A DNA stretch of 64,000 nucleotides from a virus. Lineage: Duplodnaviria > Heunggongvirae > Uroviricota > Caudoviricetes. The notes beneath the pieces are model-generated. The model searched no databases and was not told where the DNA came from. It saw nothing but the letters and a program-made list of their open reading frames with translations. Position numbers and translations under genes: made by a program. The first letter of the stretch is position 1, and the number at the start of each line of letters is the position of its first letter. Shown piece by piece: positions 18,358 to 38,814 of this stretch. The stretch spans positions 123,133 to 187,132 of IMG/VR virus record IMGVR_UViG_3300031417_000403; one strand, given 5' to 3'.

Positions 18358-19200
18358 ATGCAAACATTCAAACAATTCCTTCTTGACGACACTCGCAAAT
18401 CTCGTACGCAGGTAGTTGACGTCGATACGTTCATCAAGTGGGCAACCAAAAACTCGCTCCGATATTTGTCGGGCAAACAATTCCTGTATCGCGGCGGATC
18501 GGGTGATGCAGCAAGAGGCTTGCGTCTGGGTAACGCTGCAGGCGAGGGCATCACACCTCGCGAGAGCGCGAACACCCACAACAACTATACATTGTGGATT
18601 GACAATCATCCATCATTTGATGGTTGGCCTAAACGCTCCCTGTCTTTCATCGGAACAGACGACCGCGACGTTGCTGATGGTTTTGGCGGTGCAGCGCTGT
18701 TGGTTCTTTCCGATAACGCAAAGGTTGGTTACTGCGGTGTGAACGATCTGTGGGAAACTGAACTGGCTCCGATTGGTATCACGATCGAAGAACTCAACGG
18801 CATGACGCAGAGCATCATTGACAAGCGAATCAAGACGTATGACGAACTGGTTGATACCATGAAGCAATATGACCTTGACGACGTTCGTGCCGAAGTCAGT
18901 GACTGGCATGGCGGCGAAGAGCTGGTTGAAACAATGCACAAGCGCGGTCTTGAAACGCTGTATGACGTATGGGAATTCCTTGTCAAGCCTGACATCTTTG
19001 CCGGTCAATCGCGTGGTGCTGACGCAAGTAAACAACACGCAAACGGCGAAGTCTGGATTCAAGGCGAAGTGGGATTCATTCCTCACGGCAGCCGGCTTTC
19101 TGAAGACGATAAGAAACGCCTGATGGAATGGGCTGAACAGTTCGATAATTTCCCAGAAGAAATCGAGCATCACTGGGGACAGGACGCGTATGACTACTGA
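18358..19200 (+). CDS. capsid-targeting-leader protein, ADP-ribosyltransferase-like paralogue 1
   Basis: MQTFKQFL; LYRG, RESANT, PKRSLSFIGT, ADGFG, GEVW. Confidence 0.6.
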   Translation: MQTFKQFLLDDTRKSRTQVVDVDTFIKWATKNSLRYLSGKQFLYRGGSGDAARGLRLGNAAGEGITPRESANTHNNYTLWIDNHPSFDGWPKRSLSFIGTDDRDVADGFGGAALLVLSDNAKVGYCGVNDLWETELAPIGITIEELNGMTQSIIDKRIKTYDELVDTMKQYDLDDVRAEVSDWHGGEELVETMHKRGLETLYDVWEFLVKPDIFAGQSRGADASKQHANGEVWIQGEVGFIPHGSRLSEDDKKRLMEWAEQFDNFPEEIEHHWGQDAYDY

Positions 19201-21124
19201 TAAACTCCCACAACCACGCACGACCATTGCAGAATGTGTTGACGCGGCAGGTTCATTCAACAGCCCAATCACGCCGAACTCTGGCTTACCGTACATTCCG
19301 CCGCTGAATCCTGGTACAATTACCAATCCGCCTCAAGGCGGTGGAACGTACGTGCCTCCGGAATTCTGTGGTGGTACATTCCGCATCACGCAGGATGCTT
19401 GCTTCGGAATCGAAAACGTTTATCAGGATGCACTGGCCTCTGAGTCCCTGAATATCTCTGGCGCACCGCTCAACGTGTTCAAGCTGCTCGGCAACCACGA
19501 ACAAGGCAAGCTGATCGACTTGGTTGGCGCTGGTCGTGCAATCGGTTCGAGTATTGGCGTCGCAAACATCTTCGACGAACTGGCCGAAGGCTGGACGAGT
19601 AGCTTCAAGGGCCTTGAGGTTCTTCAGAAGCCTGCGTTCATTGGTTACGACTTTGGCATTCGCATGACCTCGTTCGGTCAACCAGAGAATGCACCAGGCG
19701 CGCCGGACGCGCAGCACATCACGAGTTTCCGAATCAAACAGGGTTCGGACCCGAACACTCGCGCTCTGCAGGTTCGTGTCGATCGTTCCGATGGTAACTT
19801 CAGCGTCGATCCACTGAAGATCATTGCGAATCCTCCTCGCACCAGTGGCGGTGTCGGCGGGTTCCATCAGGGCATAAACTCGCGTCACGGTGCCTTTATG
19901 CTATTCGCTGAATCCGCAACCAAGTTTACCGTTATGTTTGCTGGGAGCAGCACATCCACGATTCTTGGCGAAGCAACGGTTGGCGTACAGTTCAACTCGC
20001 CTGAAGGTTCATTCACGATTAACCCAAGCTCTGTCCCGTACAAACCAGGTGACTCGTTCATGGTGCCGGTCGACATGGAATGGAAACGGGTTGACGTCGT
20101 CAATCTGCCAAACATCGATGCACCGGCTCTGATCCGCATCAAACAGTCTGCTGCTTCGCGCTACTGGAGGATTGTGCCAACGTCGTTTGCTGGTGCCGCA
20201 AAAGATCAGCCATGGGTCGTCGACAAGCTCGAGCTGTTTGACTTCCAGGCAACGAGGCTGGATGACATCCAGGACCCGCTGTTCATGGAAAATCGCGATC
20301 GCGACTACGCAAAAGCATCGATCCAGATTCGTGCCGCATATACACCGTTCGACGCTGTGTCCGATCTGTCCAAGTTCGGATTCCAGATGGCCGACATCTA
20401 TTCGTTCACGGTCTCGTTCGCTGACATGGTTCGCGCACTTGGCCGTCCAATCGTAATTGGTGACGTCCTCGAAGTTCCATCAGAAATGCAATGGGACCAG
20501 AACCTGCGTCCGGTTCGTAAGTTTCTTGAGGTCATCGATACCGGTTGGGCAGCAGACGGATTCACATCTGGCTGGCAACCTGTCATCTTCCGCTTCCAGG
20601 CACAGCAGCTGATTCCTGGTCAAGAGCACCGTGATCTGCTCGGAACCGTTGACACGCAGAAATACATCACTGACGACTTCCGATTCTTTGAAGGCACTGA
20701 ACAGATTCAAACCGCTCCGCTCACTGTCACTGAAGCGAACGAAGCCGAAGCAGTTCGCGCTGTTCCAGAAAAAGGAACCAACATTCGTGAGCAAGCATCC
20801 GGCACTAACCGCTTCAACCAGCCTGGGTCCTATGACGGGGTCGGCCTGTACGTTGAGGACGGCCTGCCACCAGATGGTGCACCGTACGAATCTGGATTCA
20901 AACTGCCTGACGTTGCCGGACGTAAAGATGGTGAGTTTTTCCGTCTCGAGTATCCACCACAGCAAAATATCGCTGCACGCCTTTACAAGTTCTCGATTGT
21001 GAAGAATGCATGGCAGTATGTTGAAACAGATCGTCGTGCTCAACGTTCAGCACACCGACCAAGCCAGCTGGCCATCCTGAATCTGGATACCACATTACCA
21101 CCAGGAAGCAAAAAGATTCCATGA
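19190..21124 (+). CDS. neck protein, T4 gp14-like, with large internal insertion
   Basis: ESLNISGAPLNVFK at the N-terminus and DLSKFGFQMADIYSF...RPIVIGDVLEVP; position between gp13 and gp15. Confidence 0.7.
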   Translation: MTTDKLPQPRTTIAECVDAAGSFNSPITPNSGLPYIPPLNPGTITNPPQGGGTYVPPEFCGGTFRITQDACFGIENVYQDALASESLNISGAPLNVFKLLGNHEQGKLIDLVGAGRAIGSSIGVANIFDELAEGWTSSFKGLEVLQKPAFIGYDFGIRMTSFGQPENAPGAPDAQHITSFRIKQGSDPNTRALQVRVDRSDGNFSVDPLKIIANPPRTSGGVGGFHQGINSRHGAFMLFAESATKFTVMFAGSSTSTILGEATVGVQFNSPEGSFTINPSSVPYKPGDSFMVPVDMEWKRVDVVNLPNIDAPALIRIKQSAASRYWRIVPTSFAGAAKDQPWVVDKLELFDFQATRLDDIQDPLFMENRDRDYAKASIQIRAAYTPFDAVSDLSKFGFQMADIYSFTVSFADMVRALGRPIVIGDVLEVPSEMQWDQNLRPVRKFLEVIDTGWAADGFTSGWQPVIFRFQAQQLIPGQEHRDLLGTVDTQKYITDDFRFFEGTEQIQTAPLTVTEANEAEAVRAVPEKGTNIREQASGTNRFNQPGSYDGVGLYVEDGLPPDGAPYESGFKLPDVAGRKDGEFFRLEYPPQQNIAARLYKFSIVKNAWQYVETDRRAQRSAHRPSQLAILNLDTTLPPGSKKIP

Positions 21125-21747
21125 TTACATTTAAGCAATTTCTCAGTGAACAAGAAGCATTATCGTTTGCAGTCCTCATTCGCAGGGACTGCAAACAATT
21201 CCTCGAAGAATCAGAGTACGGAGGATTCATTCTCCGTGGTGTGAAAGGCCTGTCTGATATTGAATCGCATACTGCGCTCGATGCGGAAGGCAATGAGATG
21301 GAATATGGAATCAAAACTGTTCGCCAGGATCGTAAGCCTCTTGACTTCACGCTCCTACGTTCTGAAATTCTGGATGAATGGTTCAACGATAAGTTCGGCA
21401 TTCGTGCACGCTCGCAGTGCATGTTTGCTGGCGGCAACAGGATAACGACTGCGGAACTGAAACACTACGGAACTCCGTGCGTTGTCTTCCCAATCGGTGC
21501 ATTCAAGTATGTGTGGTCGCCAGAAGTTGGTGACCTGTACGGCAAGATGAATATTCCATGGGGTGATAAGACCTCAGAGCAATGGACAGAAGAAGCACGT
21601 GCATGGCTTGACAAACAGCATTATCAGACAGATGGTCTGGCACAGGCTGTCAAGACCAACAACGAAATCATGATTAAGTGCGATCGTTATTACGCGTTCC
21701 CAATCGAATACCAGGAACAAATGAAGCAAGCACTCGGCTTTGCCTAA
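21121..21747 (+). CDS. capsid-targeting-leader protein, ART-like paralogue 2 (GIRARS subfamily)
   Basis: MITFKQFLSE; ILRG, DRKP, FGIRARS, HYG, NEIM. Confidence 0.6.
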   Translation: MITFKQFLSEQEALSFAVLIRRDCKQFLEESEYGGFILRGVKGLSDIESHTALDAEGNEMEYGIKTVRQDRKPLDFTLLRSEILDEWFNDKFGIRARSQCMFAGGNRITTAELKHYGTPCVVFPIGAFKYVWSPEVGDLYGKMNIPWGDKTSEQWTEEARAWLDKQHYQTDGLAQAVKTNNEIMIKCDRYYAFPIEYQEQMKQALGFA

Positions 21748-21777
21748 TAAATAGCTGGATTCTGAGGAGAAACTAAA

Positions 21778-22566
21778 ATTATAAACCATTACTTTTATCA
21801 CGGCCAGCTGCGTGCGTACATTCTGCAATTCGTTTCGCTTTTCCACGGACTGCAAGTACAGACCGGTGTAGGCGAATGCGGCGATCCTGAATTTATCAGC
21901 GTGCCTACTGTCGTCGGTAACAAGGACCGTGTCGTCGCAGGCATCATGTCCGGCAACACACAGAACCGCGTTTTCTCTCTGCCAACTATGTCTGCGTACA
22001 TGACAGGCCTTGCACCAAACGATGAACGTCGTCGTGCCTCGGGATTCGTCCGTCAAGATGTTACAATGAAGACGGGCGGAATATTTCCGGATGACTTGAC
22101 CGTTGTCAAACGCGTCATGCCTGTGCCGTATGATATGACACTTGAGCTTTCGATCTGGGCGTCGAACACCCAGCAGATGCATCAAATTCTTGAACAGATT
22201 CTCGTTCTCTTCAACCCGGACATTCAGATTCAAAAGTCGGATGGACCGTTTGACTGGACTCGTATCACCAACATTACGTTGACCGACATCGGCAACGAAG
22301 AGAACTATCCATCAGGCACTGAACGTCGCATGATCGTTTGGACTTTGTCCTTCATCATGCCAATCTATCTTGGAATCCCGATGGGTGTCAAAGACGACTT
22401 GGTCCGCAAGGTTATCATTCAGCTTGGCGACCTCAGCACGATGGGAACGCTCGAAGTCGGGGAGGACGGAAACCTCCAGCCATTCGGCGACGCGTACGGT
22501 ACCATCGAAATTACCGACCGCGATCCAGCGGGACCTATTCCACCCCAACCAAACGAGATGCCATGA
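21778..22566 (+). CDS. tail terminator / sheath stabiliser, T4 gp15-like; probable ATT start
   Basis: YFYHGQLRAYILQF...MPVPYDMTLELSIWASN...ILEQILVLFNP; no ATG/GTG/TTG between stop 21763 and 21901; GAGGAG 8 nt before ATT. Confidence 0.75.
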   Translation: MINHYFYHGQLRAYILQFVSLFHGLQVQTGVGECGDPEFISVPTVVGNKDRVVAGIMSGNTQNRVFSLPTMSAYMTGLAPNDERRRASGFVRQDVTMKTGGIFPDDLTVVKRVMPVPYDMTLELSIWASNTQQMHQILEQILVLFNPDIQIQKSDGPFDWTRITNITLTDIGNEENYPSGTERRMIVWTLSFIMPIYLGIPMGVKDDLVRKVIIQLGDLSTMGTLEVGEDGNLQPFGDAYGTIEITDRDPAGPIPPQPNEMP

Positions 22567-23075
22567 AACTGATTCAAGAAATTGTCGAGCAGGTCTATCT
22601 TGCCGAAAACAAAACCAGCAAGAACATGACGCGTGCCGAGAAGGATGCGAAGCGCGCTGCGAAGAAAGCTGAAGACCAGAAAGCTTTGCAGGCGGCAAGT
22701 GATCGTCTCAAGGCAGAGAAACAGGCGAAGCTGGACAAGCTGTATGACGGCAAGCCAATGACGATCAAGCTGAAAGTCTGGACGGACATTGATCCGAAGA
22801 CAGGCAAGCGTCGTTCGGAAATGCGTGATTTCACCATCGACAACATTCAGAAAGTTCGTGCCCAGTTCTCGGACGTTGAGCTGGTCGACATGCGCTACCT
22901 CGAGAACGCAGCAACCCGTGCAGAGACGTACGCCATCAAGCGGACTGATAAGCACTTCGTTGGTTCCATCCCGGAGTACATCTTCGATCTTCCGAAGCGT
23001 ACGCAAAAGAAAAAAGGTACTTCGCCACGTGACCTGCGTCGCGAAATGTACGTGACCAAAGATGACAAAAAATAA
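22563..23075 (+). CDS. basic hypothetical late protein (MKLIQEIVE leader)
   Basis: ATGA coupling within late operon. Confidence 0.7.
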   Translation: MKLIQEIVEQVYLAENKTSKNMTRAEKDAKRAAKKAEDQKALQAASDRLKAEKQAKLDKLYDGKPMTIKLKVWTDIDPKTGKRRSEMRDFTIDNIQKVRAQFSDVELVDMRYLENAATRAETYAIKRTDKHFVGSIPEYIFDLPKRTQKKKGTSPRDLRREMYVTKDDKK

Positions 23076-23751
23076 AACGTTCAGGCAGTTCCTGGAAGAA
23101 GTTAAGCCGCTCACATTCGAAGAACTCCTTCACGGGCCTTGCGTCAACTTCTTCAAACAATCCAAGCAGAATGGTTTGCTCGTTCGTGGCATGAGTGGGT
23201 ATGGCCAGCTTGTTGGTGAGATGTCTGTGGAAGGCAACGATCAGAAGTTCACGGTGTTCCGTAAGACAGTTCGCAAGGATCGTAAACCAATGGACACTGT
23301 TGGACCGTTGCACAAGATCATCGATGATTGGTTTGAGGATCACATGGGCATTCGCGCTCGTTCTGAAGCCGTCTTCTGCTTCGGCGAAGCGGCCCGTGAA
23401 ACTGCATACACTTATGGACAGGTTTGTGTTGTATTGCCAATCGGAAAGTTCACCTATGTTTGGTCGCCAAAAGTAAGTGACCTGTTCAATGATGTCATCA
23501 TGAACAAAATGCAGGATGGACGGAACATCAAGAAAGAATACATTGGTTCTGATGGCAAGCCAGATGAAGACGTGATCTACGCAGAGCTGGATGAACTCGG
23601 CTACACCATCAACGGGCTGGATAAGGCTGTGGCTGACGCAGTAGAAATCATGATCGATTGCGATGACTACTACGTCATCCCAATGCCAAACGATTATGAC
23701 AACAGGGAAAAGTTCCTGAACATTTTAAAGAAGGCGTTTGTACACGCATGA
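23062..23751 (+). CDS. capsid-targeting-leader protein, ART-like paralogue 3 (GIRARS subfamily)
   Basis: KTFRQFLEE; LVRG, DRKP, MGIRARS, TYG, VEIM. Confidence 0.6.
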   Translation: MTKNKTFRQFLEEVKPLTFEELLHGPCVNFFKQSKQNGLLVRGMSGYGQLVGEMSVEGNDQKFTVFRKTVRKDRKPMDTVGPLHKIIDDWFEDHMGIRARSEAVFCFGEAARETAYTYGQVCVVLPIGKFTYVWSPKVSDLFNDVIMNKMQDGRNIKKEYIGSDGKPDEDVIYAELDELGYTINGLDKAVADAVEIMIDCDDYYVIPMPNDYDNREKFLNILKKAFVHA

Positions 23752-24929
23752 TTACATTCAAACAATTCCTTGACGAAGCGCGCATGACCAAGAGTGTCTT
23801 CAGCAGCGCGATCGAACGACTGGGTGACGCGAAGCTGGGTTACGAACTCGAAATGTGGGTTCCAGAAACTTCTGGGTTCCTGATCGTGAAGGACGAAGAA
23901 TACATTGGTGACTTCAAGAAGACGGCTGAAGAAGCGAAAGCCTCACTTGAAGATTATCTTGGCGTGGACGTTGTCGTTGGTAACTCTGATGACAAATGGA
24001 AAATCGTTCCAGACGGTTCTGTTCAGGGCCCAGACAATGGCGTCGGCATCGAAGTCGTATCGCCACCGCTGCCTGTTGCAGATGCACTCGACGATTTGAA
24101 GTCGTGCTTCCGCTGGATGGAAAAGAACGATCTGGAAACAAACTCCAGCACCGGCATTCACATTAACCTCTCGATCCCAGGTCTCAAACAAAAACTCGAT
24201 CCACTCAAGCTGATCCTGTTCATGGGCGAAGCACACGTGCTGAAGAGCTATGCTCGTGAAGCCAATACGTTTGCAACTAAACACTACAACGATTTGATCA
24301 GCGGCATTCAGAAATCTGGTCGCCCACCAAAAGACGCGAAGCAGCTTATCGATCTTGCCAGTGAGATGTTGCAGAGCGCAAAGTATCGCACCGTCAACCT
24401 TAGCAAACTCAGCCAGGGCTACCTGGAGTTTCGTACTGGTGGTAACGACAATTACCACAAGAAGTACAAGCAGATTGAATCGGACGTTGGCCGTTTTCTG
24501 ACCGTCCTCGAACTCGCTTGCGACCCTGATGCTGATCGTCAAGAATATCTGAAGAAAGTTGGCAAGTTGTTCGACGCTGCGAAGACTGCGAAAACTCAGC
24601 CGCCACCGGGTTACTATGCTGTTAGCAAGCCAGGTAGTTTGGAAGCTCTGATCGGGCCGACAATTCTTAATCTATTCAAAGCCAATATTCACGGTGAAGA
24701 TTACAAACGAGCAACGGAACGCCTGCGTCAAATCATGGATTCAACAGGACATGCCATTGCATCTGGACAGATTGATGAAGTCTCAGTTAAGGCAATTGCT
24801 GAATTCAAAGTATGGTTTTCACGTCTGAACAAAGGAAATCCTGGCGTATTGAAACAGATTCAGGATGACGCGTCTGCCGAGGAAAATGAGAATATCAAAG
24901 CATTCGTGAAGGCTTTTAATCTAAAGTGA
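23748..24929 (+). CDS. putative amidoligase (COOH-NH2 ligase / GCS superfamily) with capsid-targeting leader
   Basis: MITFKQFLDE; GYELE, WKIVPDGSV, IEVVSPPL, NSSTGIHINLS, KYRTVNL, YLEFR. Confidence 0.75.
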   Translation: MITFKQFLDEARMTKSVFSSAIERLGDAKLGYELEMWVPETSGFLIVKDEEYIGDFKKTAEEAKASLEDYLGVDVVVGNSDDKWKIVPDGSVQGPDNGVGIEVVSPPLPVADALDDLKSCFRWMEKNDLETNSSTGIHINLSIPGLKQKLDPLKLILFMGEAHVLKSYAREANTFATKHYNDLISGIQKSGRPPKDAKQLIDLASEMLQSAKYRTVNLSKLSQGYLEFRTGGNDNYHKKYKQIESDVGRFLTVLELACDPDADRQEYLKKVGKLFDAAKTAKTQPPPGYYAVSKPGSLEALIGPTILNLFKANIHGEDYKRATERLRQIMDSTGHAIASGQIDEVSVKAIAEFKVWFSRLNKGNPGVLKQIQDDASAEENENIKAFVKAFNLK

Positions 24930-24960
24930 TGCCATAGTTCCATGGAATCTGGCCCATCTT

Positions 24961-24968
24961 CATAAATA
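24961..24968 (+). promoter_or_regulatory. late promoter CATAAATA
   Basis: Upstream of tail sheath. Confidence 0.8.
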
Positions 24969-25023
24969 TGTTGATGAACAACCAGAGCAGCAGGTTATGC
25001 TGCCAATCCATAGGAGAAAAACA

Positions 25024-26883
25024 ATGGCAACACTGGTATCCCCAGGCGTCTCAGTCACTGTTACAAACGAGAGCTATTTCATTCCGGTGTCGGCATCGAC
25101 AGTTCCGCTTATCTTCCTCGCAACCAATGCAGGGAAGGTTCAGCCAAACGGTATCACACCGGCAGCTGGTACGCTTGAACACTCAGTTGTCCGCACTGTC
25201 ACTTCCGTGGCGCAGTCGCTCCAGCTTTACGGTGTTCCATCGTTCCGCCGCGATTCCGCAGGTAATGAATTCCACGGCGACGCACGTAACGAATACGGTC
25301 TGCTCGCGCTGAACAACTTCCTCGGTGTTGGTAACCGTGCGTATGTCGTTCGCGCAAACATCGACCTCGCAGACGAACCTGAAACCTTCCTCAGCATGGG
25401 AACTCCTGCTCTGACAGGTGCAGTTGACTTCCAAGGTCTTGGCACTGGCCAGCTTGAAAATGTAGCTGCAGCAAGTGCAAGCGTTCGCCCACAGATGTTC
25501 ATGGTACGATTCTCGTCACCATCTTCGTTCTCTGTATCGGGTGACAAGTCGGGCTATATCGGCTCAGGTAGTGTTGGGCTTCCGTTCACATCGAACTTCA
25601 TCAACTTCGAGCTGACAACGGGCGACGTTCCGTTTGCGTCAAATGACACGTTCATGTTCTACATGGACTATGCAGCAACGGCTCGTGGCGAAATGACTGG
25701 TAACGGACGCATCACGAATCTCGAAGCTGGCGCGCTGACTCAACCGCAAACATTCACGATCACATTCACTTCACCAACTTCGTTCGACGTTGATGGTACA
25801 GTAGCTGGCCCAATGGGAACTGGTCACGTCGGTGCAGACTTTGCCGACAGCCAAACCAACGGTCAAGTTCTCAGCTTCACCGCAGTGGCTGGAAATACCG
25901 CGTTTGCTGCTGGTGACGTATTCGAAATCGTTGCTTCGAGCGTAACTGTTTCGTCGCCACTCGGCGCAAATGATGCTGCACGTCGCGTTGCAATCACAAC
26001 CGCTCTGCAAGCCGAAATCAACAGCAACGTTGAAGTTCGTTCGTCGATGTACGAATACAACCTGATCCTCTGCCCTGGCTATCCAGAAGTTGTTGACGAG
26101 CTGCAAGCACTCTCTGTCGCAATCAAGGACGAAGCACTGGTCATCGCTGATACTCCAGGTAACATGTCGCCAGACCAAGTTGGACAGTGGGCTCTGACCA
26201 CTGAACGCTTTAACTCGGAATCAATCGCGTACTACTACCCATGGTGCCTGCAGTCGAATATGGACGGTCGTAACGTCCTTGGCGCGCCATCCGGCACTGC
26301 ACTTCGCACGATCGCCTACAGCGACAATGCGGGTTATGTCTGGACTCCGCCAGCAGGTGTTGCACGTGGTCTCGTATCCGGCGTATCGAAGGTTGGTTAC
26401 TTCAGCGGAACACCAGGCACTGCAACGACATTCGTCGACTGCAACCTGAACGACGGACAACGCGACTACCTGTACGAACCAGACAAGAACATCAACCCGA
26501 TCACGTTCTTCCCAGGACGCGGCATGTTGGTTTGGGGACAGAAGACTTCGGCACCAGCTGCTTCGGCAATGGATCGCATCAACGTGGTTCGCCTCGTGAT
26601 GTACCTGCGTCGCTCGCTGCGTAAGGGCGCACTGCCGTTCGTGTTCGAACCAAACGACCAGGTAACGCGCGACAATCTGAAAGCAGCAGCTGACGCTGTG
26701 CTGAATGACATCCTGATCAAACGCGGTTTGACGGACTATGCGACGTACTGCGATGAAAGCAACAACTACGGGGATCGTGTCGACAGGAACGAACTCTGGC
26801 TGGACGTTGCAATCAAGCCAACACGAGCAGCAGAATTCCTGTACATCGCGATCCGTGTGGTTGCGACAGACGCAGGCATCTGA
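25024..26883 (+). CDS. tail sheath protein (T4 gp18-like)
   Basis: MATLVSPGVSVT start; YYPW, VWTPPAG, INPI..FPGRG..VWGQKT, DRINVVRL, IKPTRAAEF. Confidence 0.95.
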   Translation: MATLVSPGVSVTVTNESYFIPVSASTVPLIFLATNAGKVQPNGITPAAGTLEHSVVRTVTSVAQSLQLYGVPSFRRDSAGNEFHGDARNEYGLLALNNFLGVGNRAYVVRANIDLADEPETFLSMGTPALTGAVDFQGLGTGQLENVAAASASVRPQMFMVRFSSPSSFSVSGDKSGYIGSGSVGLPFTSNFINFELTTGDVPFASNDTFMFYMDYAATARGEMTGNGRITNLEAGALTQPQTFTITFTSPTSFDVDGTVAGPMGTGHVGADFADSQTNGQVLSFTAVAGNTAFAAGDVFEIVASSVTVSSPLGANDAARRVAITTALQAEINSNVEVRSSMYEYNLILCPGYPEVVDELQALSVAIKDEALVIADTPGNMSPDQVGQWALTTERFNSESIAYYYPWCLQSNMDGRNVLGAPSGTALRTIAYSDNAGYVWTPPAGVARGLVSGVSKVGYFSGTPGTATTFVDCNLNDGQRDYLYEPDKNINPITFFPGRGMLVWGQKTSAPAASAMDRINVVRLVMYLRRSLRKGALPFVFEPNDQVTRDNLKAAADAVLNDILIKRGLTDYATYCDESNNYGDRVDRNELWLDVAIKPTRAAEFLYIAIRVVATDAGI

Positions 26884-26890
26884 TAAAGAT

Positions 26891-30682: not shown

Positions 30683-30707
30683 GTCATTCTCCGTAGTTGA
30701 TGGGTTC

Positions 30708-30736
30708 ATTATACCCGCGTTTGCGGGTATTGCACA
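30708..30736 (-). promoter_or_regulatory. early promoter TGTGCA-N17-TATAAT
   Basis: Reverse complement matches motif. Confidence 0.8.
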
Positions 30737-30743
30737 CAACTTT

Positions 30744-31040
30744 TTACAGATGGGTATCGAGACCAGTTTGCTCGGTGAAGACGGATTGCAGCATGTCGGC
30801 GTACAGACCTTCATGCTTGCTGATGGTGCGCAGGTTCATTGCGCGATAGAAACAGAATTCCATTCGATACAGATCGTCCGGCGTCAGCGTGATGGTCACG
30901 TAGTTGCTCTTGTTCTTCGCGAACTTGGCCGGCAGACGAAACGTCAGCGACGTGCCATGCGACACGAAGTCCTTAGCGCCGGTCATGACTTTGAATTTGT
31001 TGCCGCCGAGTTGTTCGAGGATGGTGAGCGCGATCGTCAT
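30744..31040 (-). CDS. conserved-looking phage hypothetical protein
   Basis: TILEQLGGNKFKVMTGAK pattern; own promoter. Confidence 0.7.
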   Translation of the reverse strand: MTIALTILEQLGGNKFKVMTGAKDFVSHGTSLTFRLPAKFAKNKSNYVTITLTPDDLYRMEFCFYRAMNLRTISKHEGLYADMLQSVFTEQTGLDTHL

Positions 31041-31069
31041 ATTCGTTCCAATGTTCGTTTGATGGAAGA

Positions 31070-31098
31070 ATTATACCAGCAACTACGTCTGATGCAAA
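31070..31098 (-). promoter_or_regulatory. early promoter TTTGCA-N17-TATAAT
   Basis: Reverse complement matches motif. Confidence 0.75.
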
Positions 31099-31108
31099 CA
31101 AGTTTGCC

Positions 31109-31116
31109 CATAAATA
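31109..31116 (+). promoter_or_regulatory. late promoter CATAAATA
   Basis: Upstream of 31141 gene. Confidence 0.8.
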
Positions 31117-31140
31117 GAAGAATCACTATGTGGGTCAATT

Positions 31141-32535
31141 ATGCCAAACCAGTTAACACCAATTCTAAATGGCACCAAGATTGCGCTGGAACGTCAGGCT
31201 TCTGAAAAGTTCGGTGCTGCGGTTGAAGAATTTACTCGAGGAACATTGGGTCCTGCGTTAGGCATTTCTGCATCTGATTCGACCGCTACTACCAATCGAA
31301 ACGATGGGTCTTTCTATTCGTCATCATACGCTGCGGCTCTTGCTGGTGGAACCAGCTTCCGCCCAAAGCTGAAGTTCCTCTTCAAGGTCGAATTTGTATT
31401 CACTGAAGAAGCAAAGGCTGCTGCACCAGAGCTGGCACGACAGAACAGCCAGGACTTCACGTTCATGGTCAAATCCGTTGACCGCCCGAAGATCGACTTC
31501 GAGTATGAAGACGACGTCAACATGTACAACTTCCGGACGAAGGCACTGAAGAAGATTCGCCACCGCGAACTCACGATGACCTTCATGGACGACACCGGCA
31601 ACCGCGTGCTGGACTTCTTCCGCATCCTCATGATGCTGCACTCGCCTATTACGCGTCGACAAATGCTCCGCCAGAACGCTGGTTCCGAAGCTGGTCGCCT
31701 TGCGCCACCTGACGCGATGTCGATCCGGGAAGGTAACGGTATGAACTTCTCGCAATTGCCTGAGCAAGCGAACGACACGGCTATTCGCGGAACGATCAAC
31801 TCGAATGTTGGTAACGCAATTCAAACTGTCCGCGTCAAACAGATTTACGTGAACCCAGGTTCTGTCATCGGCAATGCGGTTGAGGAAACGATTTTCGACT
31901 TCATGAATGCTAGGCTCGTGTCATTCGACCTTGATGACCTGTCACATGAAGGTTCGGATGCCAACCTGATCACGATGCAGTTCGACTATGACTGGATGGA
32001 AATCGTCAACACTGGTCCACTGTCCAAGCCGGACGGCCCAAGCTACAACGTAGCAACACCAGGTGTTCATGGTGCGCCAGTCGACGTCTCGCCTGCTGGT
32101 GGCGGTGCAACGAATCCGCAAGGTGCAGGCGGTATATTCGGCAGCATCATTTCGAATTCAATCGGTCGCGCAGGCCAACAGATCACATCGTCAGCCATCA
32201 ATCGCGCTGTGCAGTCAATCGCTGGTAAAGGACAATTCGCGTCGTTGATTAGCAGCCACGCATCGAACATCGTTGGCGGCCTCGTCGGAGCTGCAAGCCG
32301 AAACATCAGCACAAGCATTGTCAATCAGGCAGGTGCAGCCTTCTCCAACATGAACGTCATCAAAGCACCAAGTGAAGCTACAAGTCCTATGGAAAGTGCA
32401 TCCGGCTCAACGTCCGTTATGGACTCAGCTGTCGGCGGTCGTGCTGATGTTGAAGGTGTGACAACGTATTATCCAGACGGTAGCTGGACCTGGGGTTCCA
32501 ACACTTATCTGGGTCGCAACACTATTCTTAAGTAA
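31141..32535 (+). CDS. baseplate / tail-tube initiator-like protein (gp48/gp54-type)
   Basis: Tube-like core FMVKSVDRPKIDFE...ELTMTFMDD...ITMQFDYD plus Gly/Ser-rich C-terminus; late promoter. Confidence 0.6.
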   Translation: MPNQLTPILNGTKIALERQASEKFGAAVEEFTRGTLGPALGISASDSTATTNRNDGSFYSSSYAAALAGGTSFRPKLKFLFKVEFVFTEEAKAAAPELARQNSQDFTFMVKSVDRPKIDFEYEDDVNMYNFRTKALKKIRHRELTMTFMDDTGNRVLDFFRILMMLHSPITRRQMLRQNAGSEAGRLAPPDAMSIREGNGMNFSQLPEQANDTAIRGTINSNVGNAIQTVRVKQIYVNPGSVIGNAVEETIFDFMNARLVSFDLDDLSHEGSDANLITMQFDYDWMEIVNTGPLSKPDGPSYNVATPGVHGAPVDVSPAGGGATNPQGAGGIFGSIISNSIGRAGQQITSSAINRAVQSIAGKGQFASLISSHASNIVGGLVGAASRNISTSIVNQAGAAFSNMNVIKAPSEATSPMESASGSTSVMDSAVGGRADVEGVTTYYPDGSWTWGSNTYLGRNTILK

Positions 32536-32544
32536 GGACGCGTC

Positions 32545-33033
32545 ATGGCAACAGGAACAAAACGAACGATGCATGGTCGGTTCTTGCCAAAGAACCCACA
32601 GAAATATGTTGGCAATTCAAACAACATCATGTTCCGCTCAAGCTGGGAACTGACGTTCATGAAGTGGATGGATTCGAATCCAGCCGTGCTTCGTTGGGGT
32701 TCAGAAGAACTCGCGATCCCATACGTCAACCCAGTCAAGGTGGATGTGAACGGTCGACCGAAAGTTTCTCGGTATTTTCCAGACTTCATCATGCTCTACC
32801 GCGATGCAGCTGGCAATATCAAGAAGGAAATCATCGAGGTCAAACCGTATCGCGAATCAGTGCTGACGCCTGGTATGACCGAACGCGACAAGATGATGTA
32901 CGCAGTGAACCAGGCGAAGTGGAAAGCCGCTTCGATCTTCGCTGAATCCCAGGGCGCAACATTCCGTGTTGTCACCGAGAAAACAATTTACAAAACCTCT
33001 GCCGCGAAAGCCGGAGCACGAACACCTCTATGA
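32545..33033 (+). CDS. head completion nuclease, T4 gp4-like (TnsA-type)
   Basis: PKNPQKYVG..RSSWE..WGSEE..YFPDF..IEVKP. Confidence 0.9.
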   Translation: MATGTKRTMHGRFLPKNPQKYVGNSNNIMFRSSWELTFMKWMDSNPAVLRWGSEELAIPYVNPVKVDVNGRPKVSRYFPDFIMLYRDAAGNIKKEIIEVKPYRESVLTPGMTERDKMMYAVNQAKWKAASIFAESQGATFRVVTEKTIYKTSAAKAGARTPL

Positions 33034-33755
33034 AGCTATACGAAATCGCTGGTCAATACAAGACCGACATCGACACTGAAGACGAAATCATCGCGTTGAT
33101 AAAAGCCAATTGCAAGGATGCGTTGAAAAGTATCAACACACCTATTGTGCGTGGCATGACCAAAATGAAAAATGGTTTCGGTATTATCCACGGTGAAGCT
33201 GGTGGTCGCAAATCTGCGAATACGACAAACCACTATACCGTTATTCTCGATGAAGCATTGCCAGATTATCCTAAACGAAGTGCATCGATTATCTGCGCGA
33301 ATTGGGAGAATCGCGACTACACATACGGATACGGCAAAATGCATGTCATCATTCCATTTGATGGCGTGAAGATTGGTATCTGCCCAGAACGCGATATGTT
33401 TTACAGCGAAGTTAAACTCGGCGATCGCGTACAACGCATTCACCGCTGGAATGATTTTTACGAGAACAACGACATTCGTGACGATTCATTTGCACACCTT
33501 GTTGAAGACTTCCAAACGCTACTTGAACGCAGGGACCTGTGGGGAATTGAAGATCACAAAGACCATCTAGCAGAATATCTCAAGCAAGAGTATAGCGTGC
33601 CTTTCGATCTGGCAACTACTGCAACCGCACAAAAATACAATCAGGCTGATCAAGAACACGAGCTCTGGATTGGCGGCAAATGCATCGCTATCGAAAGAGA
33701 TTTATTCGAATCAATGCTGGAAAAACTTGGAGCTGACCATGAAACAGAAATCTGA
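33030..33755 (+). CDS. ART-like paralogue 4 (SANT subfamily, MKLYEI leader)
   Basis: IVRG, RKSANT, PKRSASII, GYG, EHELW. Confidence 0.6.
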   Translation: MKLYEIAGQYKTDIDTEDEIIALIKANCKDALKSINTPIVRGMTKMKNGFGIIHGEAGGRKSANTTNHYTVILDEALPDYPKRSASIICANWENRDYTYGYGKMHVIIPFDGVKIGICPERDMFYSEVKLGDRVQRIHRWNDFYENNDIRDDSFAHLVEDFQTLLERRDLWGIEDHKDHLAEYLKQEYSVPFDLATTATAQKYNQADQEHELWIGGKCIAIERDLFESMLEKLGADHETEI

Positions 33756-34224
33756 AAACCCAATCCTGAATCCGCTCGACGAGCTGTTCAACACGGAACC
33801 GCAACACCAGCCTGAAGAAGAAAAGATTGAAGGCGGAATCGAAGAGTACGACCAGATCACCGAAGGCGAACTTGCCGAGATGGCTGAACCTCCACGTTCG
33901 GAAGAAAAGGACGACGAGGATAAAGAAATCGACGCCAAGCTCGATCAAGTCTATGATGTCGCGCTGGAAACTTTCCAGCAGCAGACTGAATACACGCAGA
34001 TCATCGAGCCGCGTTATGCAGCTCGCAATGCCGAAGTTGCTGCAACTTATCTGACGATCGCGCTCAACGCAGTTGCAACCAAGGCGAAAGTCAAGGGTGA
34101 CCGCAAGCGTAATTCTGCTTTCGTCCCGTACGCAAACAAAACGCAGAACAATGTCGTGGTTGCATCACGTGAAGAAATCATGCGCATGATTTCAGTTGAT
34201 GCCGAGGTAAAGGAAATCAAATGA
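33739..34224 (+). CDS. probable terminase small subunit (gp16-like)
   Basis: EPRYAARNAEVAATYL and NNVVVASREEIMRMI resemble the gp16 helix and C-terminal strand. Confidence 0.6.
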   Translation: MKQKSENPILNPLDELFNTEPQHQPEEEKIEGGIEEYDQITEGELAEMAEPPRSEEKDDEDKEIDAKLDQVYDVALETFQQQTEYTQIIEPRYAARNAEVAATYLTIALNAVATKAKVKGDRKRNSAFVPYANKTQNNVVVASREEIMRMISVDAEVKEIK

Positions 34225-34979
34225 GGTTTAAGGAATTTCTCCTTGCAGAGGAAGAAGCAGCCAGATACAAGAAGTCTATCCCAGCGCGCGATGTCGAAAA
34301 GATGTTGAACGAACATTGCAAGGATGCAATGAAGCTTTTCCATCGCCCAATCTGGCGTGGCATGACATCAGGTTCTGATGCAATGATTATTCACGGTGAA
34401 GCGGGCGGTCGTACGTCTGCGAATACCAGCAATTACTACACCGTGATTATGGATAAATTCCTCCCGTATTTCGGATACCCAAAACGTTCGAAGTCAATCA
34501 TCTGCGCAAACAACGAGAACAAAGATTATACACGCGGGTTCGGTGCGCGCTATGCAATCTTCCCGTATGACGACGTATCAATTGGTGTTTGCCAAAGCTA
34601 TGACCTTTGGGAAACACCGTCATTCAAAATTGGTAAATGCCCGGATAAACGCAGCATTGAATCCTGGAATAGTTTCTATCGTCGCAATGGTTTATCTCCT
34701 GATAGCTGGGAAGAATTCAAAGACTCGCTTGAAGAGAAAATGCAGGGAGATTCTGAGGAAAGCCATAACTTGTTGGAATGGTTCGGACCTATTGAAAAGA
34801 TCAGTTCCGTATTCGAGCAGGCGTACAGCCCAGAAAATCTCGGACTTGAACTGACCAACTCGGCCAACATCGACAAAATTCGCGGAAGTCACGAGCTATG
34901 GATTGGCGGACCCTGCATCGCAATCAGCCAGGATGTGTGGGATGAAATGATGATTGAAATGGGACTCGCACAGAAATGA
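34221..34979 (+). CDS. ART-like paralogue 5 (SANT subfamily)
   Basis: MRFKEFL; IWRG, RTSANT, PKRSKSII, GFG, SHELW. Confidence 0.6.
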   Translation: MRFKEFLLAEEEAARYKKSIPARDVEKMLNEHCKDAMKLFHRPIWRGMTSGSDAMIIHGEAGGRTSANTSNYYTVIMDKFLPYFGYPKRSKSIICANNENKDYTRGFGARYAIFPYDDVSIGVCQSYDLWETPSFKIGKCPDKRSIESWNSFYRRNGLSPDSWEEFKDSLEEKMQGDSEESHNLLEWFGPIEKISSVFEQAYSPENLGLELTNSANIDKIRGSHELWIGGPCIAISQDVWDEMMIEMGLAQK

Positions 34980-35785
34980 GATTCAAACAATTCCTCGAAG
35001 CAAAAGTGAAGTCATACGATCACGAGCCAGCGGCGACTCACGACCTGGTTGAGTTGCTCGATCGCCATTGCTTGCAGGCACTTCGTTCTGCACAGGCTGG
35101 GAATTTCATCTATCGCGGTTCTCGTTCGACCTTGCCTGCTGGCGTATATAATCCTGGATCAGGTGAACGTAAGTCGCAGAACACATCGAATTTCTACACG
35201 ATATTTCTAGATACCAACCCGCTGAACGATGAGTTTCCAAAGCGAAGCAAATCATTCATTACTACCAACAACAGGTATAAAGCTGAAAACTACGCAAGTG
35301 GCCCGATTCTTTATTGTTTCCCATTTGACGATGTGAAGATTGGTTTGGTAGATAGTGACGACTTCTGGGACCTGCGTATTGACTTTGATGTTTTGTTTTC
35401 AGCAGGCGATTCGATTGCTGACCTGAACGATTTCTGGGAAGAGTTGATTGGTGATATGCTTCTCAAGAGTTCGGACATCAAGTCACTGGCTGATATGATT
35501 TCGGCAATTAAAAGCGAACACCCAGCAACAGTTGCGAATCGTCTCCACCGTAATGGATACCTTTATGGTGTGAATCGGTCGAAGATTTCAGATGAAGAAA
35601 TCGTCAAGCGGTTTGTTGCCTCTTTGCCAAAGGCATATAGCTACAAACAACTTGATTGCAAATTAACAACGCCAGATGACATACCAGACCCGGACAAAGG
35701 CTCGTGTGAAATGTGGTTCTCCGGAAAATGCGTAATGATCCCGGAAAATATACTGGATGAAATACGAGAGGAATTGGGACTGTGA
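34976..35785 (+). CDS. ART-like paralogue 6
   Basis: MRFKQFLE; IYRG, RKSQNT, PKRSKSFITT, AENY, SCEMW. Confidence 0.6.
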   Translation: MRFKQFLEAKVKSYDHEPAATHDLVELLDRHCLQALRSAQAGNFIYRGSRSTLPAGVYNPGSGERKSQNTSNFYTIFLDTNPLNDEFPKRSKSFITTNNRYKAENYASGPILYCFPFDDVKIGLVDSDDFWDLRIDFDVLFSAGDSIADLNDFWEELIGDMLLKSSDIKSLADMISAIKSEHPATVANRLHRNGYLYGVNRSKISDEEIVKRFVASLPKAYSYKQLDCKLTTPDDIPDPDKGSCEMWFSGKCVMIPENILDEIREELGL

Positions 35786-36555
35786 TAACGTTCAAACAAT
35801 TTTTGGCTGAAGCCGGTGCGCACAAGCAGGTTATCACCGTCGATGAAGCAGTCAAGCTGATCAACACACATTGCCGCGATGCATTGAAAAATCGTCGTCA
35901 GCTGTATCGCGGTATGACACCTGATGGTGACGCATTTGCCCTGCACGGCGAAGCATCGAAGCGTAGATCAGCTAACACGCAAAATTATTACACTGTTGTC
36001 ATGGATCATTTCCTCCCAGCATTCGGTTATCCGAAACGAAGCGAATCGATTATCCTGGCGAACAACCTCGACACGGCTCGTGGTTTCGGTCGAGTGTACG
36101 CCATCTTCCCATACGATGGCGTGCCAATTGGTGTTTGCTCCAGCGATGACCTTTGGTACACGCCTGAGTTTACGGTTGGTAATGCTGGTGATGAGATGCG
36201 CATTCAGAGCTGGAACAAAGTCTGGGACGAGTATGGACTTTCGCCTGCATCGTACGAACAATTTGTCGAGAGTATCAAGACAAAGATGGAAGGCGGTGTT
36301 TCACCGAACGCTGAGCGAACAGCTCGCATGCTACGAGACATTTTCGGTTCTCCAGAAAACGTCGAACGTGTCTTGAGGAAAGCATACAGCCCGCAAACCC
36401 TCGACCTGCACTTAGCAACAACAAAAACAATTGACGATTACTCAGGCGATCGCGAATTGTGGATTGGCGGTAAATGCATCGCCATTGAAAGAACAATGTG
36501 GGAGAAAATGAAGCAAGACGACCACGATGACGAACTGGCGCCAGAGGACGACTAA
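35782..36555 (+). CDS. ART-like paralogue 7
   Basis: MITFKQFLAE; LYRG, RRSANT, PKRSESII, ARGFG, DRELW. Confidence 0.6.
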   Translation: MITFKQFLAEAGAHKQVITVDEAVKLINTHCRDALKNRRQLYRGMTPDGDAFALHGEASKRRSANTQNYYTVVMDHFLPAFGYPKRSESIILANNLDTARGFGRVYAIFPYDGVPIGVCSSDDLWYTPEFTVGNAGDEMRIQSWNKVWDEYGLSPASYEQFVESIKTKMEGGVSPNAERTARMLRDIFGSPENVERVLRKAYSPQTLDLHLATTKTIDDYSGDRELWIGGKCIAIERTMWEKMKQDDHDDELAPEDD

Positions 36556-37448
36556 TGATTACATTCAAACAATTTCTCCACGAGGAAGAAGAGACAGACA
36601 AAGAGCACGCGTCCGTGATGGAGGCTGCGGCTGAATATCTGAAACACTGTAAACGTTTCAAAAATCTCATGAAGCCATTGTATCGACTGAGTGGCGAGTC
36701 ATGGATGAGCAACGCCAATCACAAACTCAAAACACGTGTACCACGCACACGTCGTTCAGAATCACGTGGTGGTTCTGCAGCGCAACAGGCATTCCTGTTT
36801 TCGCTACCTGGTTGGGAAGAATACCCGCCACGTCGTCAATCGATCTTCTGCTCAACTACAAGAGAATTTGTCGTCGACAGCGTTTCAGATGATGGGTCCA
36901 ATCTGCTGATGATCTATCCATTCGATGGCGTGAAGATTGCTGTGCTGCCTGAAGAAGACCTGAACACGATGAACATCGCACGCGGGTTTGATGGCAAGCC
37001 GTATATGCAGCTCGATGACTTGATCGAACAGATTGCACAGGCGTACGTTGTTTTCCGTAACACCGAATACGAAAATGGTATGGGCGACCCAATGCAGCAG
37101 CTCAAACAAATCAAGCACGTGTTCACTAAAAATGGCAAGTTCGATCCAGAGGCAAATGGCAACGATGAACTGGCCGATAAGTTCGCTGAATTGGAAAGAG
37201 AAGATTCAGCGTACGCAAGGATACTGCAGCGCGTCGCAACTCAAATGCCAGAGAAGCTTTCACCTGAAGCAATGGGCGTGAAGCTGGTAACGTCCGATCA
37301 ACTTGATTTGCCTGGTAACCAACGCGAGGTGTGGTTCTCCGGTAAATACCTGTCTGTACCATACCGCTTCCACGACGAGTTCAAACAGGCCGTAATAGAA
37401 CTCGATAATGGTAACGAAGACGACGAAGACGACGAAGACGACGAATGA
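36555..37448 (+). CDS. ART-like paralogue 8 (divergent, acidic tail)
   Basis: MITFKQFLHE; LYRL, PPRRQSIFCSTT, YPFDGVKI, QREVW; (GAAGACGAC)x3 tail. Confidence 0.55.
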   Translation: MITFKQFLHEEEETDKEHASVMEAAAEYLKHCKRFKNLMKPLYRLSGESWMSNANHKLKTRVPRTRRSESRGGSAAQQAFLFSLPGWEEYPPRRQSIFCSTTREFVVDSVSDDGSNLLMIYPFDGVKIAVLPEEDLNTMNIARGFDGKPYMQLDDLIEQIAQAYVVFRNTEYENGMGDPMQQLKQIKHVFTKNGKFDPEANGNDELADKFAELEREDSAYARILQRVATQMPEKLSPEAMGVKLVTSDQLDLPGNQREVWFSGKYLSVPYRFHDEFKQAVIELDNGNEDDEDDEDDE

Positions 37449-38077
37449 TTACGTTCAAACAGTTCATTACTGAACAAGAAATAAAAGACCTCGCGGAATT
37501 GATTAAACGCGACTGCAAGCCGTTCCTTGAAAAGTCCAGGCACCGTGGTTTGTTATTCCGCGGTGTTAGAAACATTGGACCAGGTAATGAAACTGGAAAA
37601 GTATCCGACCCAATCAACGAAGGTAAAGAAATTCTGTACTGGCGCAAAGCCGTACGCACAGATCGTAGGCCGAAGGATACAAACAGAGATGCGCACAAAA
37701 TAATTGATGACTGGTTCGAAAAAGAATTCGGAATTAGGGCTCGATCGCAAGCACTTTTTGTTTTCGGCCAAGGCATTCGAAAGCATTATCTGAATCAATA
37801 TGGCGATCCGTGCGTGGTCTTTCCAATTGGCGACTTCAAATACGTTTGGTCCGCACGTGTGCGCGACCTTTACAATTTGATGGATGACGAAGCTGATATG
37901 GATGACCTGGATGCAGTTCATACACTCCAATACAAATTGGAAACGTCAGCATATACCGATTCACAACTTGACGCTGCAATCAAGGACGAGAAAGAAATCA
38001 TGATTGCCTGCGAAGCGTATTACGCATTCCCAATCTCGGCAGAAGAATCAATTCGCGTAGCACTGGACATTTACTGA
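37445..38077 (+). CDS. ART-like paralogue 9 (GIRARS subfamily)
   Basis: MITFKQFITE; LFRG, DRRP, FGIRARS, QYG, EKEIM. Confidence 0.6.
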   Translation: MITFKQFITEQEIKDLAELIKRDCKPFLEKSRHRGLLFRGVRNIGPGNETGKVSDPINEGKEILYWRKAVRTDRRPKDTNRDAHKIIDDWFEKEFGIRARSQALFVFGQGIRKHYLNQYGDPCVVFPIGDFKYVWSARVRDLYNLMDDEADMDDLDAVHTLQYKLETSAYTDSQLDAAIKDEKEIMIACEAYYAFPISAEESIRVALDIY

Positions 38078-38814
38078 TGATTACATTCAAAGAATACATG
38101 ATGACCGAGTCGATTAACGACAAGGGCATTCTCAAAGCACTCTTCGTCGTGGGTATCCCTGGCGCAGGTAAATCCTATACGGTTTCGAAACTGCACGGAG
38201 CTATTTCACCCCGCGTCGTCAACACTGACCGATCGACTGAGTTTCTGTCGAAGAAGTACAAGATCGTTTCGAACTCGGAAACCTGGAAATCGTTCTTCCG
38301 CGATCGCACCAAGCCAATGACCAGTGAATCGTTGTTCAACTATCTGAACTCGATGCTGCCGCTGTTTGTCGACGGAACATCGAACGATGCGTCGAACATC
38401 CTGGCTCGTGCCGGTCTTCTGGAATCCTGTGGCTACGACGTTGGTATGGTATTCGTCAACGTCAACCTAGACGTAGCAATCGCTCGCGCAAAAGAACGCG
38501 GGGAGAAAATCAATCGCCACGTTGACGAAGACTTCATCAAGAAGGTTCACGAAGAATCGGAAATCAACAAGGAATACTTCAAGGGCAAGTTCAGTTTCTT
38601 CCGGGAAGTCTCGAACAATCCAGGCGAATTGGACGACGAAGCAATCCAGAAAATCTACAAACAGGTTTCCGGATTCTATGCAGAGCCAGTCGATAACCCA
38701 GTTGGTGTTCGCACGCTGGAACACTTGCGCGAAAACAAAGAAGCATACCTGGTGCCGTCAGTGTTTGAAAAAGCTGACCTGCAGAAAAAAGCCCAAGGAT
38801 GGTTCCGTTCGTAA
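38077..38814 (+). CDS. P-loop kinase (zeta-toxin/AAA_33-like) with capsid-targeting leader
   Basis: MITFKEY; VGIPGAGKS Walker A, VVNTD, FVDGT, VFVNVNLDVAIARAKER. Confidence 0.75.
   Translation: MITFKEYMMTESINDKGILKALFVVGIPGAGKSYTVSKLHGAISPRVVNTDRSTEFLSKKYKIVSNSETWKSFFRDRTKPMTSESLFNYLNSMLPLFVDGTSNDASNILARAGLLESCGYDVGMVFVNVNLDVAIARAKERGEKINRHVDEDFIKKVHEESEINKEYFKGKFSFFREVSNNPGELDDEAIQKIYKQVSGFYAEPVDNPVGVRTLEHLRENKEAYLVPSVFEKADLQKKAQGWFRS

Follow-up and report, generated by a model that had tools for sequence, protein, structure and literature searches.

Why should a series of phage genes that encode predicted enzymes of different kinds open with nearly the same short peptide? The question is raised by a 64,000-nucleotide stretch of DNA from a tailed phage (Caudoviricetes), bases 123133-187132 of the 251-kb IMG/VR record IMGVR_UViG_3300031417_000403, which is ~70% complete. 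This stretch is referred to hereafter as the window, and ORF coordinates are window positions unless marked "record". Ten open reading frames (ORFs A to J, Table 1) begin with M-x-(T)-F-(K/R)-(Q/E)-(F/Y)-(L/I/M), and all ten were found with the N-termini that an original prediction, made from the DNA letters alone, had quoted for them. We consider it likely that the N-terminal 9-13 residues, M-x-(T)-F-K-(Q/E)-(F/Y)-(L/I/M)-x-E, are a capsid-targeting sequence (CTS) of the bacteriophage T4 type, carried by a set of enzymes that are packed into the virion. Mechanistically, this would be the known T4 CTS system, and what the finding adds lies in its scope and cargo rather than in how it works.

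A genome-wide scan, which the original prediction had proposed as a check, covered the whole 251-kb record translated in six frames and found exactly 10 matches to the leader core F[KR][QE][FY][LIMV]. All 10 are on the + strand, at ORF residues 2-8 and within window positions 18358-38814, and no match occurs in the ~75,000 internal residues of the called ORFs; first-order Markov simulations give an expectation of 2.0 +/- 1.1 core matches per genome at arbitrary positions. The core is followed by an acidic residue in 10 of 10 leaders, as had been predicted, and eight of the leaders end with the canonical gp21-type site (L/I/M)-x-E, hereafter Phi-x-E. Pairwise comparisons of the 5-codon core between copies revealed 83 synonymous versus 51 non-synonymous codon differences; thus, the peptide rather than the DNA is conserved and selection acts on the protein. 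Structural modelling with AlphaFold2 (AF2) indicates that the leader is separate from the fold of the body: residues 1-9 of ORF I are disordered (pLDDT <50; body ~90-98). In ORF J, a putative kinase, the leader abuts the kinase domain but stays outside it, as Walker A begins at residue 26.

The T4 leaders, read from NC_000866, are MKTYQEFIAE in IPII and IPIII, MKTFKEFTSTTTPVSTITE in IPI, MAKINELLRE in gp24 and MELITELFDE in Alt. The IPI leader begins with MKTFKEF and ends with ITE, and the window leader MITFKQFLxE is nearly identical to it, so that the predicted resemblance to the MKT(Y/F)(Q/K)EF..E type holds against the T4 record sequences. In T4, the leaders send their proteins to the core of the prohead and are cut off by gp21 behind the Glu, and foreign proteins have been carried into the head by them (PMC3012670, PMC5694885, PMC12373910). 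This literature agrees with the targeting and cleavage stated in the original prediction.

The bodies behind the ten leaders are of three types. Eight belong to one superfamily with two branches, which were assigned by PHROG, BLAST and profile comparisons: Fam1 (ORFs A, E, F, G and H, and the gene at 33030) and Fam2 (ORFs B, C and I). The homology between Fam1 and Fam2 is supported by an hhalign probability of 99.1% and by leader-trimmed hidden Markov models (HMMs) that cross-match over their full length. There are 11 paralogs of the superfamily in the 251-kb record, including copies with a second type of leader described below. The remaining two bodies, an amidoligase (ORF D) and a P-loop kinase (ORF J), show no other similarity to the Fam1/Fam2 superfamily or to each other. 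Consequently, the predicted non-homology of the bodies is correct for the three types, but not for eight of the ten proteins.

The same leader is found on homologs of all three body types. Nearly all of 79 Fam1 and 28 Fam2 metagenomic homologs, whose bodies are 27-62% identical, open with the leader or with an MKLxE(I/L) variant. Among the 120 best homologs of the kinase, whose body is highly conserved, ~91-120 carry the leader, as do 55 (strict pattern) to 83 (loose pattern) of 150 representatives of the amidoligase clusters; giant amidoligase-containing proteins of 1,100-2,900 amino acids (aa) are without it. Of 207 leader-bearing sequences, 179 have the Glu at the fixed register of Phi-x-E. 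The residues past it are characteristic of each family (S-I-N for the kinase, K-A-M for the amidoligase and A/S for Fam1), which shows that the shared module ends exactly at the predicted cleavage site. The leader tracks the genome and not the cargo. It is MITFK(Q/E)(F/Y) in the source phage; MTTFKEYLLE (kinase, ORF 254), MNQTFKQFLTE (Fam2, ORF 255), MRLKQFLME and MTFKAFLQE in Ralstonia jumbo phage RsoM2USA; MNFEEFLLSE on a kinase beside MNFEEFLLIE on a Fam1 protein in a 393-kb metagenomic contig; and MKTFAELQE on the kinase homolog of the T4-like Methylophilales phage Melnitz. In Agrobacterium phage Atu_ph07, 10 of 11 consecutive genes share M(R/K)W(E/H/Q/N)(Q/D)L(T/N/I)E, and the product of the eleventh, gp63, starts with MRLFQLLE. 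Such tracking is the pattern expected if the signal must fit the prohead core and protease of each phage.

The source of the DNA is an uncultured jumbo myovirus of ~375 kb in the Rak2/XacN1/Atu_ph07 group of the T4 superfamily. The same proteins are also encoded by a contig of 375,534 bp; the tail sheath is 54% identical to that of RsoM2USA, XacN1, PA5oct and Rak2-like phages are more distant relatives, and megablast of the leader-gene region against cultured phages gave no match. The machinery on which a T4-type leader would depend is encoded 3-9 kb upstream of the window, where a T4-type head module comprises a gp20-like portal, a prohead protease, small core proteins, a scaffold-like protein and a gp23-type major capsid protein. 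The capsid gene matches the Gp23 profile (PF07068) with 286 bits and is adjacent to the portal gene. The protease, encoded at record 115715-116341, matches the Peptidase_S77 profile with 99.5 bits, is 34% identical to T4 gp21 and retains ELNHP and GVSSRG, motifs that align with His85 and Ser140 of gp21 (numbers from the alignment), which we take to be its catalytic residues. Two small genes between the protease and the scaffold both open with ML(S/T)LNEALKAAGLP, which contains L-N-E, and likely encode gp67/gp68-like core proteins with prohead-protease sites of their own.

Homologs of the tagged proteins have been found in virions. Leader-trimmed HMMs identify all 11 proteins gp53-63 of Atu_ph07 as Fam1/Fam2 homologs (E 1e-10 to 1e-57), for which the numbering was tied to the database record through annotated genes on either side (CDS 49 and 70) and through predicted masses. 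By mass spectrometry (MS), gp53-65 were all detected in Atu_ph07 virions, each through 3-31 unique peptides that covered 12-46% of the protein (Attai et al., 2018, PMC6102473, Table S5). The same study lists gp53-63 as hypothetical virion proteins and mentions no leader, paralogy or fold (Attai et al., 2018, PMC6102473). These data establish the association of the homologs with the virion, not their location in the head or their cleavage. In the RsoM2USA paper, the ten strongest gel bands were analyzed and none was a leader-bearing ORF, which is neutral with regard to packaging. The sequences also indicate that the same cargo occurs in the relatives both as fusions and as separate proteins: gp53 is a Fam1 protein fused to a Zeta-type kinase and matches the 788-position PHROG 12810, gp54 (41844-43316) comprises two tandem domains similar to ADP-ribosyltransferases (ARTs), and in gp63 (49504-50592) the Fam2 domain is preceded by a further domain of ~120 aa at the N-terminus, which matches GNAT weakly.

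An ART fold is probable for Fam1 and Fam2, as a prediction of fold that does not imply activity. The AF2 models of ORF E (Fam1) and ORF I (Fam2) have pLDDT values of 94.6 and 89.6, respectively. With both models, Foldseek returned nothing at E <= 0.001 from PDB and Swiss-Prot, and a shape search of the ESM Atlas returned unnamed viral clusters only. In an exhaustive VIA-align search, BC2332 (2aua) was the top match of both independent models, with Z scores of 5.9 and 5.7, which are below the tool's noise guide of 7-8, and with 131-132 residues aligned at a root-mean-square deviation of 3.7-4.0. BC2332 is classified in the ADP-ribosylation superfamily (SCOP d.166.1.6; PMC3000352). The next matches are Arr, AvrPphF, DarT, CopC/OspC3, diphtheria toxin, exotoxin A and PARPs, and for the Fam2 model ARTs account for 15 of the next 17 (AvrPphF, Arr, CopC/OspC3, DarT, exotoxin A, cholix toxin, CteC and PARP15). 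The conserved residues could fit an R-S-E-like pattern. Fam1 has a nearly invariant R46-G47 on an early strand and two fully invariant motifs, R64-x-S66 (within R-x-S-x-N-T-S) and, on a late strand, E225-x-W227; Fam2 has an invariant R39-G40 and a nearly invariant E184. At the sequence level, a Pfam scan of 64 Fam1 members found no family, comparison of the Fam1 profile with PDB sequences gave chance matches only, and hhalign of Fam1 with T4 Alt gave a probability of 0.4%, i.e., no relation.

The other two bodies agree with the original prediction. ORF D matches Amidoligase_2 (PF12224) with 38.6 bits versus a cut-off of 22 and has 2,239 homologs, so its profile match predicts a GS-like amidoligase. 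ORF J matches Zeta toxin (PF06414; also PF13671, AAA_33) with 38.8 bits versus a cut-off of 22.3 and has the Walker A motif GIPGAGKS at residues 26-33; the nearest solved sequence is seryl-tRNA(Sec) kinase, a weak match, and searches of PDB sequences with the kinase and the amidoligase found no informative relative. Homologs of the kinase are also encoded by T4-like Kyanoviridae of ~140 kb, including Methylophilales phage Melnitz-3 (65855-66523; leader MKTFAELQE-G) and Pelagibacter phage HTVC008M (106562-107224; leader MIPFILKE-G). These short leaders suggest that the tagged kinase may be an old and widespread virion cargo of the T4 superfamily.

A second type of leader, MK(L/V/I)xE(L/I)(L/V)xE, is similar to the propeptides of T4 gp24 and Alt and was found at the starts of about 13-15 further ORFs across the record, one of which encodes a protein of 1,328 aa. 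Members of Fam1 and Fam2 switch between the leader types: those at 33030 and at record 58637 and 59245 carry the second. As it replaces MxTFKQF within both branches, the tagged set may be much larger than ten. For most of the second-leader ORFs Pfam and PHROGs gave nothing informative, with the exception of the two Fam2 paralogs.

The tagged genes are tightly packed among structural genes, which supports their co-expression with them. They are joined to adaptor, virion structural and head-closure genes by overlaps of 1-11 nucleotides (nt) or gaps of 1 nt. For instance, ORF A starts 2 nt past the end of the neck/adaptor gene and ORF B overlaps by 4 nt the stop of an upstream gene for a 644-aa virion structural protein. 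A Fam2 gene, the kinase and the terminase are immediate neighbors here and in RsoM2USA, where the terminase is on the opposite strand. Between ORFs B and C lies an open frame with homology to RsoM2USA_406 (MITGYFYQQQLKRYIIQF...), in which ATG, GTG and TTG are all absent ahead of residue 46. The N-terminus of its homolog falls on Ile codons (21778-21783) that directly follow three stop codons, which points to ATT/ATA as the start or to some other unusual initiation.

Table 1. Leader-bearing ORFs and associated genes (window positions unless marked record).
Feature	Position	Strand	Description
Neck/head-tail adaptor gene	16383..18356	+	phrog_211, 1.7e-41; upstream of ORF A
ORF A	18358..19200	+	280 aa; MQTFKQFLLDD; Fam1 type; phrog_12810 N-domain, 1.8e-22
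ORF B	21121..21747	+	208 aa; MITFKQFLSE; Fam2 type; phrog_11975, 1.6e-29
ORF C	23062..23751	+	229 aa; leader start MTKNKTFRQFLEE; Fam2 type
ORF D	23748..24929	+	393 aa; MITFKQFLDE; Amidoligase_2 domain, residues 59-229
Tail sheath gene	24997..26883	+	directly downstream of ORF D
Head closure (gp4-like) gene	32545..33033	+	phrog_218, 1.2e-44; end overlaps start of Fam1 array
ORF E	34221..34979	+	252 aa; MRFKEFLLAE; Fam1 type; modelled with AF2
ORF F	34976..35785	+	269 aa; MRFKQFLEAK; Fam1 type; Glu at non-canonical register
ORF G	35782..36555	+	257 aa; GTG start, (M)ITFKQFLAE; Fam1 type
ORF H	36555..37448	+	297 aa; MITFKQFLHE; divergent Fam1 type; acidic C-terminal tail
ORF I	37445..38077	+	210 aa; MITFKQFITE; Fam2 type; modelled with AF2
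ORF J	38077..38814	+	245 aa; MITFKEYMMTE; predicted Zeta-toxin/AAA_33 P-loop kinase
Terminase large subunit	40565..42118	+	downstream of array
Second-leader ORF	13056-13793		
Second-leader ORF	22563..23075	+	170-aa charged protein; MKLIQEIVE; possible extra cargo
Second-leader ORF	33030..33755	+	241 aa; MKLYEIAGQ, not MxTFKQF; sixth Fam1 paralog
Second-leader ORF	38845..39408	+	187 aa; start MKLDELLNPPVALLE; directly after kinase gene
Second-leader ORF	61757-62617		
Second-leader ORF	record 58637-59245		MKVAELLAE; Fam2 paralog; phrog_11975, E ~1e-37
Second-leader ORF	record 59245-59814		MKIIELLED; Fam2 paralog; phrog_11975, E ~1e-37
Second-leader ORFs	record 53214, 87711, 103054, 234662, 241801		
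Second-leader ORFs	record 78024, 109584	-	
RsoM2USA_406 homolog	~21766-22566		open frame; candidate for unusual initiation
Small gene	record 116341-116598		outside window; likely gp67/gp68-like core protein
Small gene	record 116731-117195		outside window; likely gp67/gp68-like core protein

Based on these results and the T4 model, we propose that the tagged genes are transcribed and translated together with those for neck, tail and head completion, as their operon structure suggests, and that the short amphipathic leader, by analogy with T4, would attach each protein to the scaffolding core while the prohead assembles. The gp21-type serine protease would then cut after the Glu of Phi-x-E; the site and the protease are both present, and the cut is what we infer from them. 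The mature enzymes would remain in the head with the DNA, in keeping with the virion presence of the homologs in the case of Atu_ph07, and would probably be ejected into the host at infection, as T4 Alt and the internal proteins are. The cargo encoded in the window would comprise eight fast-evolving paralogs of one superfamily with a probable ART fold, one GS-like amidoligase and one Zeta-toxin-like P-loop kinase, and its role would most likely be to modify host proteins or defence factors before phage transcription.

Several observations weigh against this proposal. The leaders of ORF A (FLLDD) and ORF F (FLE-AK) have no canonical Phi-x-E at the usual register. The region that can be aligned between Fam1 and Fam2 includes the leader, and as eight of the ten bodies are paralogous, most copies in the genome could have been inherited with the body; the leader is thus portable, as originally predicted, with respect to three unrelated body types and hundreds of homologs, but paralogy explains most of the copies within the genome. 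No sequence profile links Fam1/Fam2 to a described ART family, so the label "ART-like" given to them originally is backed by weak fold matches and not by sequence profiles. No match to the T4 late promoter TATAAATA occurs in the window, so that the original designation of these ORFs as late is supported by their operon context with structural genes rather than by promoters. The Atu_ph07 virions were purified with polyethylene glycol only, their N-termini were left unmapped in that study, and a few entries of the MS list are non-structural proteins represented by 1-3 peptides, among them ribonucleotide reductase and a protein similar to RecA (PMC6102473). For the source phage itself, the location in the head rather than in the tail or neck, the cleavage, the ejection and the role in takeover or anti-defence are what we infer.

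The alternatives differ in what the leader would be. It could be a by-product of paralogy, i.e., the conserved first helix of one expanded family without signal function, as eight of the ten ORFs are of one superfamily and residues 3-16 of the Fam1 model are helical (pLDDT 78-87). We regard this as very unlikely, because the amidoligase and the kinase are unrelated to that superfamily and to each other, hundreds of their homologs keep a leader with similarity that ends exactly at the Glu, the leader is disordered in the Fam2 model and the Fam1/Fam2 members swap two leader types. The main residual alternative is that the leader addresses the proteins to another virion site, such as the neck, tail or baseplate, or to an assembly chaperone, and that the proteins are structural or assembly factors rather than ejected effectors. 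The genes do stand among those for neck, sheath, tube and head closure, and the Atu_ph07 MS gives presence in the virion, not location; still, this is unlikely, given that the leader is nearly identical to those of T4 head-internal proteins and ends in a prohead-protease site, that the bodies resemble enzymes (amidoligase, kinase and ART folds) and that 11 fast-diverging paralogs would be atypical for structural parts.

The leader might also be a tag for a modifying enzyme or a regulatory protease: one like the leaders of ribosomally synthesized and post-translationally modified peptides, a degron, or a pro-peptide that silences toxic enzymes in the producer cell. A removable pro-peptide would be sensible, as Zeta-type kinases and ARTs can be toxic, but no radical-SAM gene was found in the 251-kb, ~70% complete record, the leader is only ~10 residues long and outside the folded domains, and the virion MS of the homologs favors packaging. 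The probability of this alternative is slight, and it could be compatible with capsid targeting rather than replace it. The least probable explanation, to which we attach hardly any weight, is that the conserved element is nucleotides, e.g., a translation-initiation enhancer or a recombination hotspot, with incidental translation. Five genes have ATGATTACrTTyAAr in common, and shared leader DNA could promote the shuffling of cassettes; yet synonymous differences in the core outnumber non-synonymous ones and the peptide is kept across very divergent metagenomic phages.

Should the tag function as it does in T4, genome sequences would directly reveal which proteins are injected by a large group of jumbo phages, most of them uncultured, and that set would be mainly one of enzymes (ART-like, amidoligase and kinase) and not of small inhibitors as in T4. 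The tagged proteins are concrete candidates for early host-takeover or anti-defence effectors, and a role would be assigned to many "hypothetical virion proteins" of Atu_ph07 and RsoM2USA. The tag might also serve, as it has in T4, for loading foreign proteins into the heads of jumbo phages. More tentatively, the leader and its MK(L/V)xELLxE variant might together form an address code, readable from sequence, that marks injected proteins throughout the T4 superfamily, from Kyanoviridae of ~140 kb to jumbo phages of ~500 kb. By sequence alone, such a code would single out as injected a conserved kinase, an amidoligase and a new ART clade that diversifies rapidly and has up to 11 copies per genome, and every one of these copies would act on a host target or defence system of its own. 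In a literature search of limited reach, no paper was found that describes a CTS on the Fam1/Fam2, amidoligase or kinase families or in this phage group.

The principle of capsid targeting has been known for ~30 years, and the CTS that T4 internal proteins carry was reportedly described by Mullaney and Black in 1996. The leader described here is like the T4 CTS in length, N-terminal position, (L/I)-x-E end and occurrence on unrelated proteins, and the source phage likewise encodes a protease of the gp21 family together with a T4-type head module. One of the proteins packaged by T4, Alt, is an ADP-ribosyltransferase, and ART-like bodies are predicted here. Unlike T4, the source is a jumbo phage rather than a T-even phage and is known from its genes alone. 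T4 has 3-4 tagged proteins, whereas there are 10 here, or 15 or more counting the second leader type; the cargo is mostly predicted enzymes of 20-45 kDa instead of small non-enzymatic nuclease inhibitors, and the tagged genes are within structural operons rather than in separate hypervariable ip loci.

In the phiKZ-like giant phages (SPN3US, 201phi2-1 and phiKZ), head-internal ejection proteins are cut after the Glu of (A/S)-x-E by a gp21-related protease (PMC5694885, PMC10052503). The protease is homologous, cleavage is at Glu and the paralogs of these proteins also share conserved N-termini, but they differ from the proteins described here in their propeptides, which mostly exceed 100 residues, and in motif, cargo (virion RNA polymerase etc.) and lineage. 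The polyvalent proteins of phages and conjugative elements contain ART, amidoligase and Zeta-type kinase domains and are proposed to be delivered with DNA (Iyer, Burroughs, Anand, de Souza and Aravind, 2017, PMC5512222; jumbo-phage survey, PMC7824862). This is the same repertoire of domains, and relatives have fused forms, such as Atu_ph07 gp53 and the giant amidoligase proteins. No polyvalent-type fusion was seen among the ten ORFs, in which each domain is a separate protein of 208-393 aa with its own T4-type leader, instead of part of one giant chain that includes a packaging domain. Atu_ph07 gp53-63 share with the source phage direct homologs of Fam1/Fam2 and the kinase, a tandem array and a common leader of 8 residues that ends in Glu; unlike that of the source phage, the Atu_ph07 leader is a lineage-specific one, MRWEQLTE.

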